A stretch of 56,793 nt of DNA, the filler included, from Sandaracinaceae bacterium (lineage in GTDB: Bacteria; Myxococcota_A; Polyangia; Polyangiales; JADJQN01): NCBI GenBank assembly GCA_947483975.1. It is 2 parts of 2 records of this genome, joined end to end, with 100 filler letters (N's around TTAATTAATTAA, not from the genome) between each part and the next. Parts side by side here need not be neighbours in the genome. Positions count along the whole stretch, not along the records: positions 28,687 to 56,793 come from CANKOL010000022.1; 1 more part is not named here. One strand, written 5' to 3'. Positions 16,602-36,837 of this stretch are shown here, piece after piece. Position numbers and translations under genes: made by a program. The notes under the pieces are model-generated. The model saw only the letters and a list, made by a program, of their open reading frames with translations, was not told the origin of the DNA and did not search any database. Numbering within the stretch: the first letter of the stretch is position 1; each line of letters begins with the position of its first letter.

Positions 16602-17936
16602 GTGTCACCGCGACGGCTGGTCACTCCGCCGAAGACGATCACTCTTCACGTCGATGGGCACGAGGTGCCGGCCGTAGCGGGGGAGCCCGTGGCCGTCGCG
16701 CTCGCGGCTGCGGGCCGCTACGTCCTCTCGCGCAGCATCAAGTATCACCGACCCCGCGGCCCGACGTGCTTCACGGGGCGCTGCGACGGCTGCCTGATGC
16801 GCGTGGACGGCGTCGGCAACGTGATGACGTGCCGCGCGCCGGCGCGCGACGGCATGCACGTCGAGACGCAGAACGTCGTCGGCTCGGCTGAGTCGGACCT
16901 GCTCTCTGCGACGGATTGGTTCTTCCCCGGCGGGATGAACCATCACGAGATGTTCACCGCGAACAAGATGCTCAACCAGGCGATGCTGAAGGTCGCGCGC
17001 CGTATCGCGGGCATCGGCGAGCTCCCGACTCGCCTCGTGCCCGACTCGCCTCCGCGCGAGGCTGCGTGCGAGGTGCTGGTCATCGGCGGCGGTCCCGCGG
17101 GGCTGGCCGCGGCGACACAGGCGGCGCTCGCGGGTGCTTCGACGATCTTGCTCGAGGAGACCGACGAGACGGGCGGGCATCTGCTGGCGTATCCGGGCGG
17201 CGTCGTCGATGAGCGCGGGCGAGAGCTCAACGCGCCTGCGGTGGCGGAGGCGCTCACGCGCGAGGCAGAGGCGGCGGGCGTCCGCGTGCTCGCGCGGCAC
17301 GCTGCGATTGGCGTCTACGGCGACGAGGTGCTCGCGCACGCGAAGGACCATGTGTTGCGGGTGCGGGCTCAGCGCGTGATCGTCGCGACCGGCGCGCACG
17401 AGGGCGGAATGGCCTTCGAGGGCTCGGATCTGCCCGGCGTGATCGGCGTTCGCGCGGCGTGTCTGCTCCTGCGGCACGGCGTGCTGCCCGGCGAGCGCGT
17501 CGCGATCGTCGGCTTGGGCGAGTGGAGCGACGCGCTCGCGTCGGCGCTGCGTACGCGCGGCGCAGAGGTGTTCGGACCGTTTCCGGAGGCGGAGGTGCTG
17601 CGCGCGCGAGGGCGTCCGGCGGTGCGCGGGCTCGACGTGGCGCGCGGCGCGGGAGCGGGCGCGACGACGGAGACGCTCGAGTGCGACTGTGTCGCCATCG
17701 CACCGCCGCCCTCGGCCGCGTACGAGCTTGCGGAGCAAGCGGGCGCCGGGGTGTCGTTCTCGGGAGACGCGTTCGTCGTCAGCGCGAACGGAGTGAACGG
17801 CGCGACCGCCGCTGCGCGCGTGTTCGCGGTCGGCGAGTGCACGGGCGTCGAGGGGCTCCGCGTCATCCTCGAACAGGCGCGCGCGGCGGGCGAGGCCGCC
17901 GCGGCGTCGCTCGAGCCAGAGGCCGCGAATGTCTGA
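16602..17936 (+). CDS. 2Fe-2S/FAD oxidoreductase alpha subunit (sarcosine oxidase / proline dehydrogenase / opine oxidase family)
   Basis: SRSIKYHRPRG, CFTGRCDGC...NVMTC, VIGGGPAG and VATGAHE. Confidence 0.85.
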   Translation: MSPRRLVTPPKTITLHVDGHEVPAVAGEPVAVALAAAGRYVLSRSIKYHRPRGPTCFTGRCDGCLMRVDGVGNVMTCRAPARDGMHVETQNVVGSAESDLLSATDWFFPGGMNHHEMFTANKMLNQAMLKVARRIAGIGELPTRLVPDSPPREAACEVLVIGGGPAGLAAATQAALAGASTILLEETDETGGHLLAYPGGVVDERGRELNAPAVAEALTREAEAAGVRVLARHAAIGVYGDEVLAHAKDHVLRVRAQRVIVATGAHEGGMAFEGSDLPGVIGVRAACLLLRHGVLPGERVAIVGLGEWSDALASALRTRGAEVFGPFPEAEVLRARGRPAVRGLDVARGAGAGATTETLECDCVAIAPPPSAAYELAEQAGAGVSFSGDAFVVSANGVNGATAAARVFAVGECTGVEGLRVILEQARAAGEAAAASLEPEAANV

Positions 17937-18246
17937 CAAGACCATCGTCTGTCGCTGTGAGGACGTCAGCGCGCACGACGTCGAGAAGGCCGTCGCGCAC
18001 GGCTATCGCGACCTCGAGTCCGTCAAGCGCTTCACGGGTTTCGGCACGGGTTGGTGTCAGGGAAAGCAGTGCGTCTCGCTGTGCGCGCGCTTGCTCGTCG
18101 CGGCAGGCGGCGAGGTGCCCACCAGCCCGATCACGCCGCGTCCGCCGTTTCATCCGGTGCCGCTCGCGCACCTCGCTGGGCTCGAGCGCCCGCGCAAAGA
18201 CTCCGTCGCTGCCCCGCCTGCTCGCAACGACGAGGACGAGCGCTGA
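17929..18246 (+). CDS. BFD-like (2Fe-2S)-binding small subunit
   Basis: IVCRCEDV...KRFTGFGTGWCQGKQC...TPRPP. Confidence 0.88.
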   Translation: MSDKTIVCRCEDVSAHDVEKAVAHGYRDLESVKRFTGFGTGWCQGKQCVSLCARLLVAAGGEVPTSPITPRPPFHPVPLAHLAGLERPRKDSVAAPPARNDEDER

Positions 18247-19454
18247 TGCCGCCGAGCACTCCGTCGCTCCCGCCTCCCGCGCTGACCGCCCCGCTCGCGC
18301 TGCCCGAGCAGGCGGACGTCGTCGTCGCTGGCGGCGGCATCATGGGACTCTCGACTGCGTATCACCTCGCGCGGATCAATCCGTCGCTGCGCATCGTCGT
18401 GCTCGACAAGACTTATCTCTGCGGCGGCGCGAGCGGGCGCAATGGCGGCGGCGTGCGCGCGCAGTGGTCGAGCGAGACCAACATTCGCTTGATGAAGGAG
18501 TCCGTCCGTCTCTGCGCCGAGTTCGCGACGGAGATGCGCATCAACGTCTGGTTTCGGCAAGGTGGCTATCTGTTTCTCGCGCACAGCGAGGCGCGCGCGA
18601 AGGAGCTTGCCGCGTCGGTCGAGCTGCAGCGCGCGAATGGCCTCCGCACTCGCCTCATCGGCGTGAGCGAGGTGAAGAAGCTCGTGCCTGAGCTCGACAC
18701 TCGCACGCTCGTGACTGCCGCCTTCAATCCCGATGATGGCGTCGTGTTCCCGTGGCCGTTCGTGTGGGGTTATGCGCGCGCGTGCGAGCAGCGCGGGGTC
18801 TCGCTGCACACCTTCACCGAGGTCGTCGGGCTCGAGACGGAGGGGGGCGGCAAGCGCCTCTCAGCGGTCGTCACGAACCGCGGCCGCATTCGCACTCCGC
18901 TCGTCGTCAACGCGGCTGGGGCGTGGAGCCCGGAGATCGCGCGCCTCGTCGACATTCAGCTGCCGAATCACCCGCATCGACACGAGATCTGCGCGACCGA
19001 ACCGCTCAAGCCATTTCTGCGGCCGCTCGTCGCCGACCTCGCGAGTGGGCTCTATTTCTCGCAGTCGATGCGCGGCGAGATCGTCGGCGGCATCAGCAAC
19101 GAGAACGTCCCCGACGGCATCGATCAGAACTCTTCGGCAGAGTTTCTCGGCCTCTACGCGAGCGCGCTCGTCGCGGCGATGCCGGTGCTCGGCGCGGTGC
19201 GCGTGCTGCGGCAGTGGGCAGGCTGCTACGACCTCACGCCGGACGGCAGCCCGATCGTCGGCTTCCTCGACGAGGTCGACGGCTTCTATCAGCTCTGCGG
19301 CTTCATGGGCCACGGCTTCATGATGGCGCCGATCATGGGGAAGCTCGCCGCGGAACACATCCTCGCCGGCAAGGCCGACCCGGCCTTCGAGAAGTGGAAT
19401 TTCAGGCGCTTTCGCACGGGTGAGTTGGTGCGAGAGACGATGATTCTCGGCTAG
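18246..19454 (+). CDS. FAD-dependent amino-acid oxidoreductase beta subunit (DAO/SoxB-like)
   Basis: GGGIMG, GASGRNGGGVRAQW, QWAGCYDLTPDGSPIVG and GFMGHGFMMAP; TGATG overlap. Confidence 0.9.
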   Translation: MPPSTPSLPPPALTAPLALPEQADVVVAGGGIMGLSTAYHLARINPSLRIVVLDKTYLCGGASGRNGGGVRAQWSSETNIRLMKESVRLCAEFATEMRINVWFRQGGYLFLAHSEARAKELAASVELQRANGLRTRLIGVSEVKKLVPELDTRTLVTAAFNPDDGVVFPWPFVWGYARACEQRGVSLHTFTEVVGLETEGGGKRLSAVVTNRGRIRTPLVVNAAGAWSPEIARLVDIQLPNHPHRHEICATEPLKPFLRPLVADLASGLYFSQSMRGEIVGGISNENVPDGIDQNSSAEFLGLYASALVAAMPVLGAVRVLRQWAGCYDLTPDGSPIVGFLDEVDGFYQLCGFMGHGFMMAPIMGKLAAEHILAGKADPAFEKWNFRRFRTGELVRETMILG

Positions 19455-33389: not shown

Positions 33390-34964
33390 TCAGAACAAGT
33401 CGAGCACCTTCCGCGCGACGCTGCCGCTCCGAAACAGCAAGCGCATCCCCTTCGCGAACGCTCGGTAGGAGCCCTCCGAGTACGGGAACCACATCGGATC
33501 GCGGCTCCCGAGCGCGATCCGGTCGTAGCTCACGTGCCGGACCTCGCACATATCGCGGAGCCCCTCCTCGCCGTGCACGCGGCCGAAGCCCGAGTCCTTC
33601 ACGCCACCGAACGGCGCCTCGGGCGCCGCGTACGCGGTGAGCACGTCGTTGACCATCACGGTGCCCGCGCGGACACGCTCCGCGAGGCGGCGCCCCTTGT
33701 CGCGGTCGCGCGTGAACACATAGCCCATCAGCCCGAGGTGCGAGTCGTTGGCGAGGCGGACCGCCTCTTCGTCGTCGGATACGCGCATGATCGGCACGAT
33801 CGGCCCGAAGATCTCCTCGCGCATGACGGCCATATCCTGCGTGCAGCCGGCGAGCACCGTCGGCTCGAAGAAGCTCCCCAAGCCCACGACCTGCTTGCCG
33901 CCCGCCTTGAGCTGCGCGCCCTTGCCGACCGCGTCCGCGATGAGGGTCTTGGCGACCTCGAGCTGCTTGTCGAAGATGATGGCCCCGACGTCGACGTCCC
34001 CCGCGACCGGGTCTCCCTGCCGCAGCTCACCGACGAGCTGCACGACCCGCTCGACGAGCTGCTCGTAGAGCGCCTCGTGCGCGTAGACGCGCTCGACGCT
34101 GATGCAGATCTGCCCGCTGTTCGCGAAGCCTCCGTAGACGAGCGCGCGCGCCGTCCGCTCGAGATCGGCGTCCGCGCAGACGATCGCCGCCGCCTTCCCG
34201 CCGAGCTCCATCGTGCAAGGGATCAGCCGCTCCCCGCACGCCGCGGCGACGCGACGCCCGGTCGCGACCGCGCCCGTGAACACGACCTTGTCCGGGCGCG
34301 CGTCGATCAGCGCGGCGCCCGTGCGCCCATCGCCCGTGACGACCTGGAACAGGTCCGGCGGCAGCCCCGAGGCATCGAAGAGCTCCTTGCACTTGACGCC
34401 GATGAGCGGCGTCACCTCGCTCGGCTTGAGCACGACGGCGTTGCCCGCGAGGAGCGCGGTGATGCTGTCGCCCATCGGGATCACGAAGGGGAAATTCCAA
34501 GGCGCGATGATGCCGACGACCCCGCGCGGCGCGTAGTGCACATAGCTGCGCCGGTGCTTGAGCAAGTGGAGCTCGATCTCACGCGGCGCGAGCAGCCTCG
34601 GGGCGCGCTTCGCGTAATACGTCGCGAGATCCGCGGTGACCATGACCTCGTGCGTGAGGCCCTCGGCGCGCGGCTTGCCGCACTCCCTCGCCAGCAGCTC
34701 GACGAGCTCCTCCGCGCGATCGACGATGACGTCCCGCAGCTTGAGGATGCGCTCACAGCGCTCTTCGACCGGCAGGAGGGCCCACGAGACCTGCGCGGTC
34801 CGGGCTCGCTCGACTGCGGCGCGCACGGCGTCTGGTCCCAGGATCGGCACCTCGCCGAGCCTCTCACCAGTCGCGGGCGCGTAGCTCACCAGCATCTCGC
34901 TGCGTGGCTGACTCCCTACCTTGCTCGACTCTGCTGCTGCGAGGTGGTCCATGAGCGCCTCCAT
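33390..34964 (-). CDS. Aldehyde dehydrogenase (succinate-semialdehyde-like)
   Basis: PWNFP, LKPSE, FTGAVATG, MELGGK, NSGQIC (catalytic Cys), EEIFGP and PFGGVKDSGFG. Confidence 0.95.
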   Translation of the reverse strand: MEALMDHLAAAESSKVGSQPRSEMLVSYAPATGERLGEVPILGPDAVRAAVERARTAQVSWALLPVEERCERILKLRDVIVDRAEELVELLARECGKPRAEGLTHEVMVTADLATYYAKRAPRLLAPREIELHLLKHRRSYVHYAPRGVVGIIAPWNFPFVIPMGDSITALLAGNAVVLKPSEVTPLIGVKCKELFDASGLPPDLFQVVTGDGRTGAALIDARPDKVVFTGAVATGRRVAAACGERLIPCTMELGGKAAAIVCADADLERTARALVYGGFANSGQICISVERVYAHEALYEQLVERVVQLVGELRQGDPVAGDVDVGAIIFDKQLEVAKTLIADAVGKGAQLKAGGKQVVGLGSFFEPTVLAGCTQDMAVMREEIFGPIVPIMRVSDDEEAVRLANDSHLGLMGYVFTRDRDKGRRLAERVRAGTVMVNDVLTAYAAPEAPFGGVKDSGFGRVHGEEGLRDMCEVRHVSYDRIALGSRDPMWFPYSEGSYRAFAKGMRLLFRSGSVARKVLDLF

Positions 34965-35088
34965 CGATCCGGGCCCAGGCCCGAACGGAAGCAGCGACCC
35001 TAGTGGACGACCACGAGCCGTTCAATCATGCGTTGCGTCAGACTCTCGGCCGCGTCCCCAGGGGCCGCCGAAGCGCGACGCGCGCACC

Positions 35089-35655
35089 TCAGTAGACGTA
35101 GTCCTTCAGCCGCGCGACGTCCTCGAGCGCTTGCAGCTTCGCGAGGCCCGCCGTCTCCACCTGACGCACTCGCTCGCGCGTGAGGTTCATGATCTCGCCA
35201 ACTTCCTCGAGCGTGATGCCGCCACGGTCCGCGATGTCGATCGCGCAGGTCTCGGTCATCTCCCAGACCTCGACGTCGGGGAAGTTCACCTTGATCGAGC
35301 CACGCACCGGATGGACGTCGATGTAGAGGTGGTACTTGCAGGAGACGAACGGGCACGGACGCTCCATGTCCGAGCACTCCGCGCGGCTCTGCGGGCGCCA
35401 GTAGTCGACCTCGGGATAGAGCACCTTCCCGAGGTTCAGCTCGGTCTTGCTCAGGCGCCGAATGGAGATGGTGCGCGCGCGAGCCCGCGAACGGCGCTTG
35501 CGGCGACGCCCACCCGGCTCCTCCGCCTCGTCGAGATCCTCGCCCACGGCGAGCGCGAGCGCGCCCTCCATGTGCGGCTCGCCCCCCGACACCATCGTCC
35601 CGGCGCCCGTCGTCATCTCATCACTCTCGGATTCGACCGCATTCACGTCAGCCAT
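35089..35655 (-). CDS. Stand-alone sigma70 region-4 HTH protein with Cys/His-rich N-terminal module
   Basis: [21 protein letters not shown]...ETCA, then [21 protein letters not shown]; no sigma region 2. AGGAGG SD before ATG 35655. Confidence 0.85.
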
Positions 35656-35769
35656 CGTTCCCGCCTCCTGTTTCGATCGCTCGCTCCGCCCAGCGATCGC
35701 GCCCTGACGACCCATCACCCCGCCGTGAACCGCGCCTCGCCCGCGCCGTTCACGCCCTAGACAACCTGC

Positions 35770-36285
35770 TCAGACCGCCGCGCGAGCCATCCGCGCGTGC
35801 ATCGACAGCCGACGGTCGACATCCACGAGCTTCTTCACGAGCTCCGCGGCCAGCGTCTTCGCCTCCGCGAGCTCGCGGACGCTGAGTTCGTCCGCAGCGC
35901 CCTGCCGCGCGCGCTCTTGGCGCGCCTTCTCCAGCCCCAAGAGCACCCGCTCTAGCTGCCGCTCGAGCGCCCCGATGTCCCCGCGAACGAAGAGGTACTC
36001 GCGCTGGATCTCGTCGATCGTGAAGCCCGACGACATCATCCGGCGCAGCTGGTCGATCTGCCGGACCACGGTCGTCGGGTAGAAGCCCTGCGAGCCGCGG
36101 TGCTTGCCCTTCATGCCGACCCGGTGACTCCGGGGGAGCAACCCGAGCTGCACGTACTTCCGGAACGTCGCCTCGGTGAGCCGCTCACCTTGGCTGGTGA
36201 AGAGATCGACGATCTGCTGGACGCTGAGCCCGTCGGGGTGGGCCTGCTCGAGGCCCAGGAGCTTGTCCTCCGTCCAGACGTCCAC
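35770..36285 (-). CDS. MerR-like HTH DNA-binding protein
   Basis: EATFRKYVQLGLLP...GFYP...IDQLRRMMSSGFTIDEI, followed by a coiled coil. Confidence 0.8.
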   Translation of the reverse strand: MDVWTEDKLLGLEQAHPDGLSVQQIVDLFTSQGERLTEATFRKYVQLGLLPRSHRVGMKGKHRGSQGFYPTTVVRQIDQLRRMMSSGFTIDEIQREYLFVRGDIGALERQLERVLLGLEKARQERARQGAADELSVRELAEAKTLAAELVKKLVDVDRRLSMHARMARAAV

Positions 36286-36355
36286 GCGCCCCCCAGACCG
36301 ACTTTGAATCGTGTTTCGATTCTAGAACGACGAGACCATCCCGTCGGCACGCGCG

Positions 36356-36385
36356 AATGTATTCTTCTCAAAAGAATCCCGTCAA
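36356..36385 (-). promoter_or_regulatory. Sigma70-type promoter with 18-bp spacer containing a dyad (ATTCTT-N5-AAGAAT)
   Basis: Minus strand TTGACG-ggattcttttgagaagaa-TACATT, about 70 nt upstream of the MerR-like gene, in an AT-rich island. Confidence 0.65.
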
Positions 36386-36451
36386 TAAAAACGTGCACGA
36401 AAAGTTGACCAGGCCTCTACAAGTTTCTGGCCTGTGTCCGTTTTGCTTTGA

Positions 36452-36464
36452 TTTCAAGGAGTTA
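36452..36464 (+). promoter_or_regulatory. IHF-like site
   Basis: TTTCAAGGAGTTA versus the consensus WATCAANNNNTTR (1 mismatch), in an AT-rich divergent intergenic region. Confidence 0.35.
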
Positions 36465-36543
36465 GCGTCGCGGCATCTCGGGCGCGTAGCCGATCTTCGA
36501 AATCGAATTGCGATCCGGGGTTCGATTGGGGCACGCTCTAGGC

Positions 36544-36837
36544 GTGTCTGTGGACTCGTTCGCCCTCCGGTTCGCCCTGCTCGCGCTCGCTGCGGGCTCC
36601 CTCGTCGGCTGCGGCGGACGCGGGGAGGCGCGCTTCGGTCAGCCCTGCGAGCGGGACGCGGACTGCCAGCGCGGGCTCTGCGTCGCGGGGGTCGCCGGGA
36701 CGACTCCGGTGTGCACGACGAGCTGTGGAGGACGGGGTGACTGCCCGCCGGATTGGGCGTGCAACGGCGTGACCCAGGCCAACGTCGTGGTGTGCTCGCG
36801 CGGGGCCTCGACGCCGTTCGGCGAAGGCAGCCGTTGA
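36544..36837 (+). CDS. Small Cys-rich lipoprotein
   Basis: Lipobox LVGC; GQPCERDADC..LC..VCTTSC..DCP..AC..VC (8 Cys). Start 36544 or 36550. Confidence 0.75.
   Translation: MSVDSFALRFALLALAAGSLVGCGGRGEARFGQPCERDADCQRGLCVAGVAGTTPVCTTSCGGRGDCPPDWACNGVTQANVVVCSRGASTPFGEGSR

Follow-up and report, generated by a model that had tools for sequence, protein, structure and literature searches.

What transcription system is encoded where a MerR-like gene stands in front of a gene for a protein that carries the promoter-reading end of a primary sigma factor and apparently little else of one? The case arises in a draft genome of a Sandaracinaceae bacterium (Polyangiales; GCA_947483975.1), within a stretch of 56,793 nucleotides (nt) which was analysed as a whole and is called the window below; the two genes, A (MerR-like) and B (sigma-4-like), follow each other on the minus strand. 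A preliminary description of this DNA had put the pair forward as a candidate undescribed transcription module under a promoter with a dyad in its spacer; every checkable detail of that description, from the two co-oriented open reading frames (ORFs) to the promoter, the dyad and the surrounding AT-rich island, proved accurate. The novelty of the module, however, does not survive: judged from its sequence, this is the asgB operon of a freshwater myxobacterium resembling Sandaracinaceae (Polyangiales), in which a gene of the MXAN_2912 type is followed by an orthologue of asgB.

AsgB is a Myxococcus regulator known since 1994. BLASTP aligns B with M. xanthus AsgB at 56% identity over 129 amino acids (aa; E 5e-50), a span comprising both the cysteine module and the helix-turn-helix discussed below. 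The route to AsgB led from an Anaeromyxobacteraceae relative to its order, of which 81 genomes were searched; a full-length match was found in 77 of them (E <= 1.4e-56), a partial one in 1, sigma-type proteins only in 2 and none in 1. At locus L159 an ORF of 163 aa is letter for letter the UniRef entry Q1D899_MYXXD, 'DNA-binding protein AsgB' (exact look-up), and the ORF immediately upstream of it shares a 90% cluster with 'hypothetical protein MXAN_2912 [M. xanthus DK 1622]', which is classed as a regulator of the MerR family. On these comparisons the 'stand-alone sigma4' protein is identified as the orthologue of AsgB (MXAN_2913); because B matches in this way a regulator that has been characterised, and whose sigma-4.2-like helix-turn-helix has already been published, the locus is the asgB operon and not an undescribed module. 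B shares with M. xanthus AsgB the MerR-like upstream neighbour, the single copy per genome and the type of helix-turn-helix; it differs in its 188 aa with a longer acidic N-terminus (AsgB has 163 aa), in keeping His109, which is Asn in AsgB, in a SigA-like RLKDYVY end that AsgB lacks, and in belonging to a freshwater, non-fruiting lineage.

In passages of PMC3986340, AsgB is described as a 163-aa DNA-binding protein with a C-terminus like region 4 of sigma-70; in the asgB mutant some genes are de-repressed 40- to over 1000-fold, and the mutant is tied to iron-dependent phase variation in M. xanthus. A 2026 preprint still calls AsgB 'likely a transcription factor' and gives it no transposon fitness score. 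The role of AsgB in A-signal production, growth and phase variation derives, in these sources, from M. xanthus genetics alone.

The upstream gene has its counterpart in Myxococcus as well: A is orthologous to MXAN_2912, with 42% identity over 153 aa (E 9e-39, BLASTP), the same position and the same strand. In the literature found, a single paper names MXAN_2912, and does so as the coordinate for an MrpC peak in chromatin immunoprecipitation. It had been proposed that A combines a MerR-type helix-turn-helix with a coiled coil and has no cysteine-containing effector domain, and the comparisons are compatible with this. The Pfam model MerR_1, which A itself matches weakly, is matched by 16 of 22 orthologues at E <= 0.01 (best 1e-6); the profile of the A family finds among PDB chains the MerR structure 4ua1 at E 0.007 and otherwise coiled coils only, the matches of the C-terminal half being coiled-coil chains exclusively. 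Thirteen columns are invariant (E38, R42, K43, Y44, Q46, L49, R55, V56, G64, S65, G67, Y69, P70), and a C-terminal region for binding an effector (metal, drug or redox) is not seen: across the 22 orthologues neither Cys nor His is conserved there, and additional domains are lacking. Classical MerR regulators include MerR, CueR, ZntR, SoxR and BmrR, and BldC is an effector-less relative. A resembles this family in its putative N-terminal winged helix-turn-helix, with a long helix predicted to follow, and in the dyad lying between -35 and -10 of its promoter; it departs from it in the missing effector end, the lack of conserved Cys, an extended basic wing and a Pfam score below the cut-off.

The two genes are syntenic well beyond the window. 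In a phylum sample of 251 genomes B was found in 155, mostly in single copy, and A in at least 49, all of them B-positive, so that A was never seen apart from B there; the count of A is a lower bound, because at most 14 candidates were scored per genome. In 46 of the 49 A-positive genomes A immediately precedes B and has the same orientation; one pair of the other three is split over two contig ends, and two genomes have no listed place for B. By lineage, the arrangement holds in 28 of 29 loci of the window's order (the exception is a contig end), in 25 of 30 loci of the AsgB-holding order and in 15 of 21 loci whose genomes are named, including Sandaracinaceae, Sorangium, Byssovorax, Haliangiales, Kofleriaceae and Anaeromyxobacteraceae. 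Among 20 loci from more distant lineages A precedes B in 7 and B is alone in 13, and half the genomes (9 of 18) of a family in the window's own order have B but no A. In the source genome, which was searched for each gene, both are single-copy.

Some observations on individual lineages may be added. Where B is alone in the distant lineages, the AsgB-like gene is often directly followed (L036, L037, L046, L047, L049) by a purH-like gene (5-aminoimidazole-4-carboxamide ribonucleotide transformylase/inosine monophosphate cyclohydrolase, judged by its N-terminal sequence), a different conserved neighbourhood; one locus of the window's order (L025, G145:C312:17185-17607, 17772-18302) has two tandem AsgB-like genes behind a single MerR-like gene; and a metagenome-assembled genome labelled Candidatus Sumerlaeota (L079), of a different phylum, carries, on an AT-rich contig and without partner, a full AsgB-like gene with 65% identity over residues 85-175, for which lateral transfer, a piece of phage DNA or faulty binning may be responsible. 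Two families of the phylum sample (f22, f17) contain true sigma factors only.

As to the architecture of B, the presence of a region 4.2 and the absence of a region 2, both noted in the preliminary description, are borne out by Pfam and NCBIfam scans alike. Sigma70_r4 (PF04545) is the sole Pfam match (E 8e-9) and covers profile positions 20-49 of 50, and no region 2, the part of a sigma factor that binds core and recognises the -10, is seen in B by the NCBIfam sigma models: their matches are confined to the final 30-45 residues and score 12-34 bits, where the cut-offs are 43-800. The best PDB relatives by sequence are, to the exclusion of anything else, region 4 of the group-1 sigma factors SigA/RpoD, and the match spans chain positions about 28-72 of 73-residue sigma-4 constructs. 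The recognition helix TRERxRQxE is invariant in alignments of 32 and of 109 sequences; the terminal RLKDY motif of B occurs in SigA chains too and is not kept in M. xanthus AsgB. B thus has a helix-turn-helix with a TRERxRQxE helix nearly identical to those of RpoD/SigA, but without regions 1-3 and without a sequence match to region 4.1, in place of which it carries a Cys4 module and a basic tail; by these scans B is not a sigma factor.

The cysteine cluster reads C94-x6-C101-x4-C106-x2-H109, followed by C137. Its four cysteines are invariant in the 32 sequences and in 109 diverse ones drawn from 50%-identity clusters, and to this extent the Cys/His cluster described earlier stands; the histidine as a universal ligand does not, since only about 90% of the sequences keep it, while M. 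xanthus AsgB and several representatives have Asn instead. Because of this replacement in AsgB and other members, the ligand set would be Cys4 rather than Cys3His. No sequence relative in the PDB was found for the cysteine part, and Pfam holds no model for the N-terminal module of the family. AlphaFold2 (AF2) predicted B poorly from 32 sequences (predicted local distance difference test, pLDDT, 59.5) and, from 109 sequences, with pLDDT 89.1 and a predicted template modelling score (pTM) of 0.58. In the latter model C94 ends a short helix, C101 and C106 lie in a loop preceding a strand and C137 opens a helix, a predicted geometry compatible with a small zinc module, although this does not amount to a fold match: Foldseek with the model gave no PDB match at E <= 0.001 and no BFVD match, a wide VIA-align search returned only the long C-terminal helix against unrelated coiled coils (Z up to 5.6), and neither program yielded a fold relative of the cysteine module or recovered sigma region 4 itself.

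The pair is preceded, about 70 nt upstream of A, by a sigma-70-type promoter, the only promoter-like site found in 34800-36800, where shuffled sequences lead one to expect 0.1. It is conserved: TTGACN-N18-TAnnnT recurs in 32 of 76 upstream regions of A orthologues, nearly all of them from the window's order, and an AT-rich dip of comparable kind is present upstream of A in most orthologous loci. The 32 promoters, selected in such a way that only the TTGAC and TA...T positions were fixed beforehand, align to the consensus ..TTGAC..gaTTcttTTgAaTaGAATACAtTCgc. Of the spacer dyad described earlier, the outer ATTC...GAAT is kept; the inner bases of the exact 6-bp dyad vary, and they change symmetrically in four loci (L004, L024, L025, L063). 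A second near-palindrome, GAATACATTC over the -10, is conserved too. In freshwater metagenome run X11 a related strain differs at 44 of 1521 positions, none of which falls in 36324-36445 (122 bases, with the promoter), both flanks being variable.

Promoters activated by classical MerR proteins have over-long spacers of 19-20 bp, and such a mechanism had been invoked for this operon. Among 74 distinct upstream regions, TTGACN and TAnnnT are separated by 18 bp in 32, by 17 bp in 16, by 15 bp in 1 and by 21 bp in 1, and in none by 19 or 20 bp (on the reverse strand there is one match each at 15, 16 and 19); since the spacers are thus of 17-18 bp, the classical mechanism is not indicated, and in this respect too the A operon differs from its MerR counterparts. 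What does go together with the MerR-like gene across the phylum is a 7-mer, T[CG]A[AG]T[AG]G, which is present in 51 of 73 A-upstream regions but, where lineages have B only, in just 1 of 23 upstream regions (background 0.08-0.10 per 260 nt), a comparison of which only the contrast with the B-only lineages is independent, because the motif was defined after inspecting the A-upstream regions and its enrichment there is partly circular. It often occurs in two or three copies per A-upstream region, the last overlapping the A start codon. The promoters of the B-only lineages keep a plain TTGAC and miss the spacer/-10 motif. These cis-elements travel with the MerR-like gene, which supports the putative autoregulation by the MerR-like protein suggested in the preliminary description.

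A second perfect dyad, GAATCG-N5-CGATTC (36306-36322, minus strand), with the same GAAT/ATTC half-sites, is located in the predicted leader of A; at the matching place relatives have ATTCAAATG, whose ATG is the A start codon. In one genus of the window's order (L005, L006, L010-L014, L016-L018, L020, L021) A starts about 22 nt past the -10 and without a Shine-Dalgarno sequence, and because of this short distance and missing signal the messenger RNA there would be nearly leaderless; in the window, A has lost the N-terminal extension of that genus, and its start codon comes about 70 nt after the -10. The coordinates of all these features are collected in the table.

Table. Features of the asgB operon and its promoter; positions count along the window, residues along each protein.
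Feature	Position	Strand	Remarks and basis
Gene A (MerR-like; MXAN_2912 orthologue)	35770-36285	-	171 aa, GTG start
Putative MerR-type winged helix-turn-helix of A (residues 37-95), extended wing GxKGKHRGSQGxYP	36001-36177	-	Pfam, PDB profile
Helical C-terminal half of A, resembling coiled coils (residues about 100-171), without effector domain	35773-35988	-	PDB profile
Gene B (AsgB orthologue)	35089-35655	-	188 aa from likely ATG 35655; stop codon 35089-35091
Basic patch of B (residues 50-61)	35473-35508	-	Translation; basic R/K tract before TI..RRL kept in alignment
Cys cluster of B: C94, C101, C106, (H109), C137	35245-35376	-	Alignments
Helix-turn-helix of B (residues 143-187), of the sigma-70 region 4.2 type	35095-35229	-	Pfam Sigma70_r4, PDB relatives
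Sigma-70-type promoter TTGACG-N18-TACATT	36356-36385	-	-35 36385-36380, -10 36361-36356
Spacer dyad ATTCTT-N5-AAGAAT	36361-36377	-	Half-sites 36377-36372 and 36366-36361
Near-palindrome GAATACATTC over -10	36355-36364	-	Nearly invariant in 32 aligned promoters
AT-rich island around promoter	36300-36449		GC 0.45-0.47 vs 0.65-0.8 in flanks

How, then, might the operon work? The reading that we prefer, and regard as probable with some reserve, is that B is a Cys4-stabilised reader of -35-like DNA, that a dimer of A serves as an occupancy-type autoregulator, and that A is dispensable in many lineages. According to this model A and B would be transcribed from one conserved, housekeeping-type promoter, TTGACG-N18-TACATT, with a predicted start near 36349, some 7 nt past 36356; the AsgB-type protein would be a DNA-binding transcription factor, whose helix-turn-helix, presumably a descendant of primary-sigma region 4.2, would read TTGAC-like (-35-like) DNA, whose N-terminal module would be stabilised by a metal, most likely structural zinc, bound at the Cys4 site, and whose arginine-rich tail would provide extra, non-specific DNA contacts. 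The MerR-like protein, in turn, would dimerise via its C-terminal helices and bind the ATTC/GAAT elements over the spacer and the -10, so as to control by occupancy its own operon and hence the dose of AsgB; because the spacer measures 17-18 bp, it would not make use of the spacer-untwisting of classical MerR activators. A would be an accessory, since phages and many myxobacterial lineages apparently make do with the AsgB-like gene alone. A complex prediction with two copies of A and the core of B scored 0.00 against a mark of 0.32 and, run as it was without controls, speaks neither for nor against binding.

Several observations weigh against this model. In the best-sampled genus the exact dyad has degenerated, and the promoter of the window itself departs from the 7-mer (TGAGAAG, not TGAATAG), whose definition on the very A-upstream regions has been mentioned above; A scores 19.8 bits with Pfam MerR_1, where the gathering cut-off is 21.6; the limit on the candidates scored per genome means that A is maybe under-counted; and the AF2 model of B draws residues 94-128 as a single long helix and not as a helix-turn-helix, for which reason it does not confirm the sigma-4 fold.

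The same findings have to be set against other accounts of the two proteins. In sigma factors the helix of region 4.1 helps to clamp the flap tip, and by sequence it is the cysteine module that stands in the place of this helix in B. The similarity of B to sigma factors is, moreover, limited to Pfam positions 20-49 of 50 and chain positions about 28-72 of 73, and M. xanthus AsgB lacks the terminal RLKDY; we therefore hold the alternative raised in the preliminary description, a sigma-4 mimic that displaces region 4 of the housekeeping sigma from the beta-flap tip and so reprogrammes promoter use rather than working as an ordinary DNA-bound factor, to be very improbable, even though the C-terminus of B is closest to group-1 sigma region 4, down to the RLKDY common to SigA chains, and loss of asgB has global effects (PMC3986340). 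The metal- or redox-gating that the preliminary description had also considered would turn the Cys4 site into a sensor, either an iron-sulfur cluster or redox-active thiols gating DNA binding, and not a structural zinc site; the invariance of the four cysteines would agree with it, and so would the link of the asgB mutant to iron-dependent phase variation reported in PMC3986340. The pattern C-x6-C-x4-C...C, modelled with a knuckle ahead of a strand and with its last Cys where a helix begins, suits structural zinc equally, however; an iron-sulfur assembly context and a match to a known family are both lacking, and the phage copies retain the same cysteine site, so that a sensory function appears unlikely.

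It may also be argued that A and B are merely co-transcribed, the promoter elements being read by AsgB or by another global factor and A regulating other targets. Such an explanation accommodates the occurrence of B without A in 13 of 20 distant loci, in 9 of 18 genomes of one family of the window's order and in 80 of 80 viral loci (see below), as well as the TTGAC -35 itself, which resembles the sort of site, a TTGAC-like -35, that Plamann is said to have proposed for AsgB in 1994. It is less easily reconciled with the B-only promoters, where the plain TTGAC is kept and the spacer/-10 motif is gone, or with the fact that in 49 genomes A was never found away from B; we rate it as rather improbable, and retain the model in which A acts on its own promoter.

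Relatives of B are not confined to Myxococcota chromosomes. A profile search of 1.84 billion cluster representatives returned 20555 proteins with E <= 0.001; of these, 6636 reach E <= 1e-10 and 2466 reach E <= 1e-30, the last figure giving the size of the AsgB-like family as 2466 clusters at 50% identity. The ESM Atlas pointed to a viral cluster at 0.89, taken as a lead only, and relatives were then looked for in IMG/VR. The cysteine motif is present in 70 of the 80 IMG/VR loci kept, and none of the 80 has an A-like gene within 4 kb; about 70 viral contigs (in L171-L246), with GC contents from 0.33 to 0.73, encode AsgB-like proteins with Cys4 and sigma-4 parts. A PHROGs scan of six viral loci (80 of 107 ORFs from eight picked loci) identified as neighbours a large terminase together with a Mu-type transposase (L173), a minor tail protein along with a DNA methyltransferase (L232), RuvC-like resolvases (L181, L186, L215) and a helicase and a ParB-like protein (L199), and because of such phage-type neighbours at least some of these contigs are to be regarded as real phages. 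The AsgB-like proteins of six viral-contig loci themselves have no PHROG match at E <= 1e-5, and when GenBank phages were searched by tblastn with the C-terminal 103 residues, 9 records were hit, in the region 4.2 part only. In a quick tree of 162 AsgB-like sequences (137 columns; poorly resolved, with 93 of 157 inner branches open) the viral sequences are long-branched and lie mostly outside the chromosomal groups, a few being nested within; the tree does not give the direction of transfer between phage and host.

A bolder view would place AsgB in a large class of phage and host 'orphan sigma-4' proteins, each combining a Cys4 metal module with the -35-reading helix of a primary sigma, and would see its coupling to a MerR-like protein bound over the spacer and -10 as a two-protein promoter lock or recruiter; we consider this distinctly unlikely. 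Each orphan sigma-4 protein would occupy -35-like TTGAC elements, one copy having become a core global regulator of myxobacteria; A would be coupled to the AsgB-like protein in several myxobacterial classes, the two lying next to each other on DNA as sigma region 4 and a MerR dimer do, but with no RNA polymerase involved; and the phage versions would take over or silence host-type promoters.

Returning to the locus itself, A and B are separated by 114 nt. The longest ORF of B in the list for the minus strand runs from a GTG at 35718 to 35089 (209 aa); the ATG listed in the table, which is preceded by AGGAGG, is the likely start. In the A-B intergenic region the hairpin is ordinary (z -1.3). 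Downstream of B, on the same strand, follows an aldehyde dehydrogenase-like ORF of 524 aa (33390-34964, minus); no terminator-like site was found between the two, nor anywhere in 34800-36800, and an Rfam scan of 34900-36700 gave zero matches. Contigs of metatranscriptome run X20 cover 35310-35479 (in B) and 36052-36202 (in A), where DNA carry-over is possible and from which start, strand and level cannot be read. The assembly is fragmented (524 contigs, 81% complete) and the window joins contigs, positions 1-28586 being one contig and the operon lying on another; because of this join, positions before 28586 are not genomic context of the operon.

In the literature searched (main texts; the original 1994 asgB paper lies outside it and may mention the cysteines or the upstream ORF) the pairing with a MerR-like gene, the Cys4 site and the operator are undescribed. 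Relative to that literature, and with AsgB itself already known, the new elements are the Cys4 site, the MerR-like partner, which looks obligate in the lineages that have it, the operator-like elements linked to this partner in a promoter with a 17-18 bp spacer, and the phage relatives. AsgB has been for three decades a named regulator of development and phase variation in Myxococcus; the Cys4 site, the MXAN_2912-type partner, the conserved promoter with its ATTC/GAAT elements and the phage relatives offer four handles on this protein, all of them directly testable in the M. xanthus genetic system.

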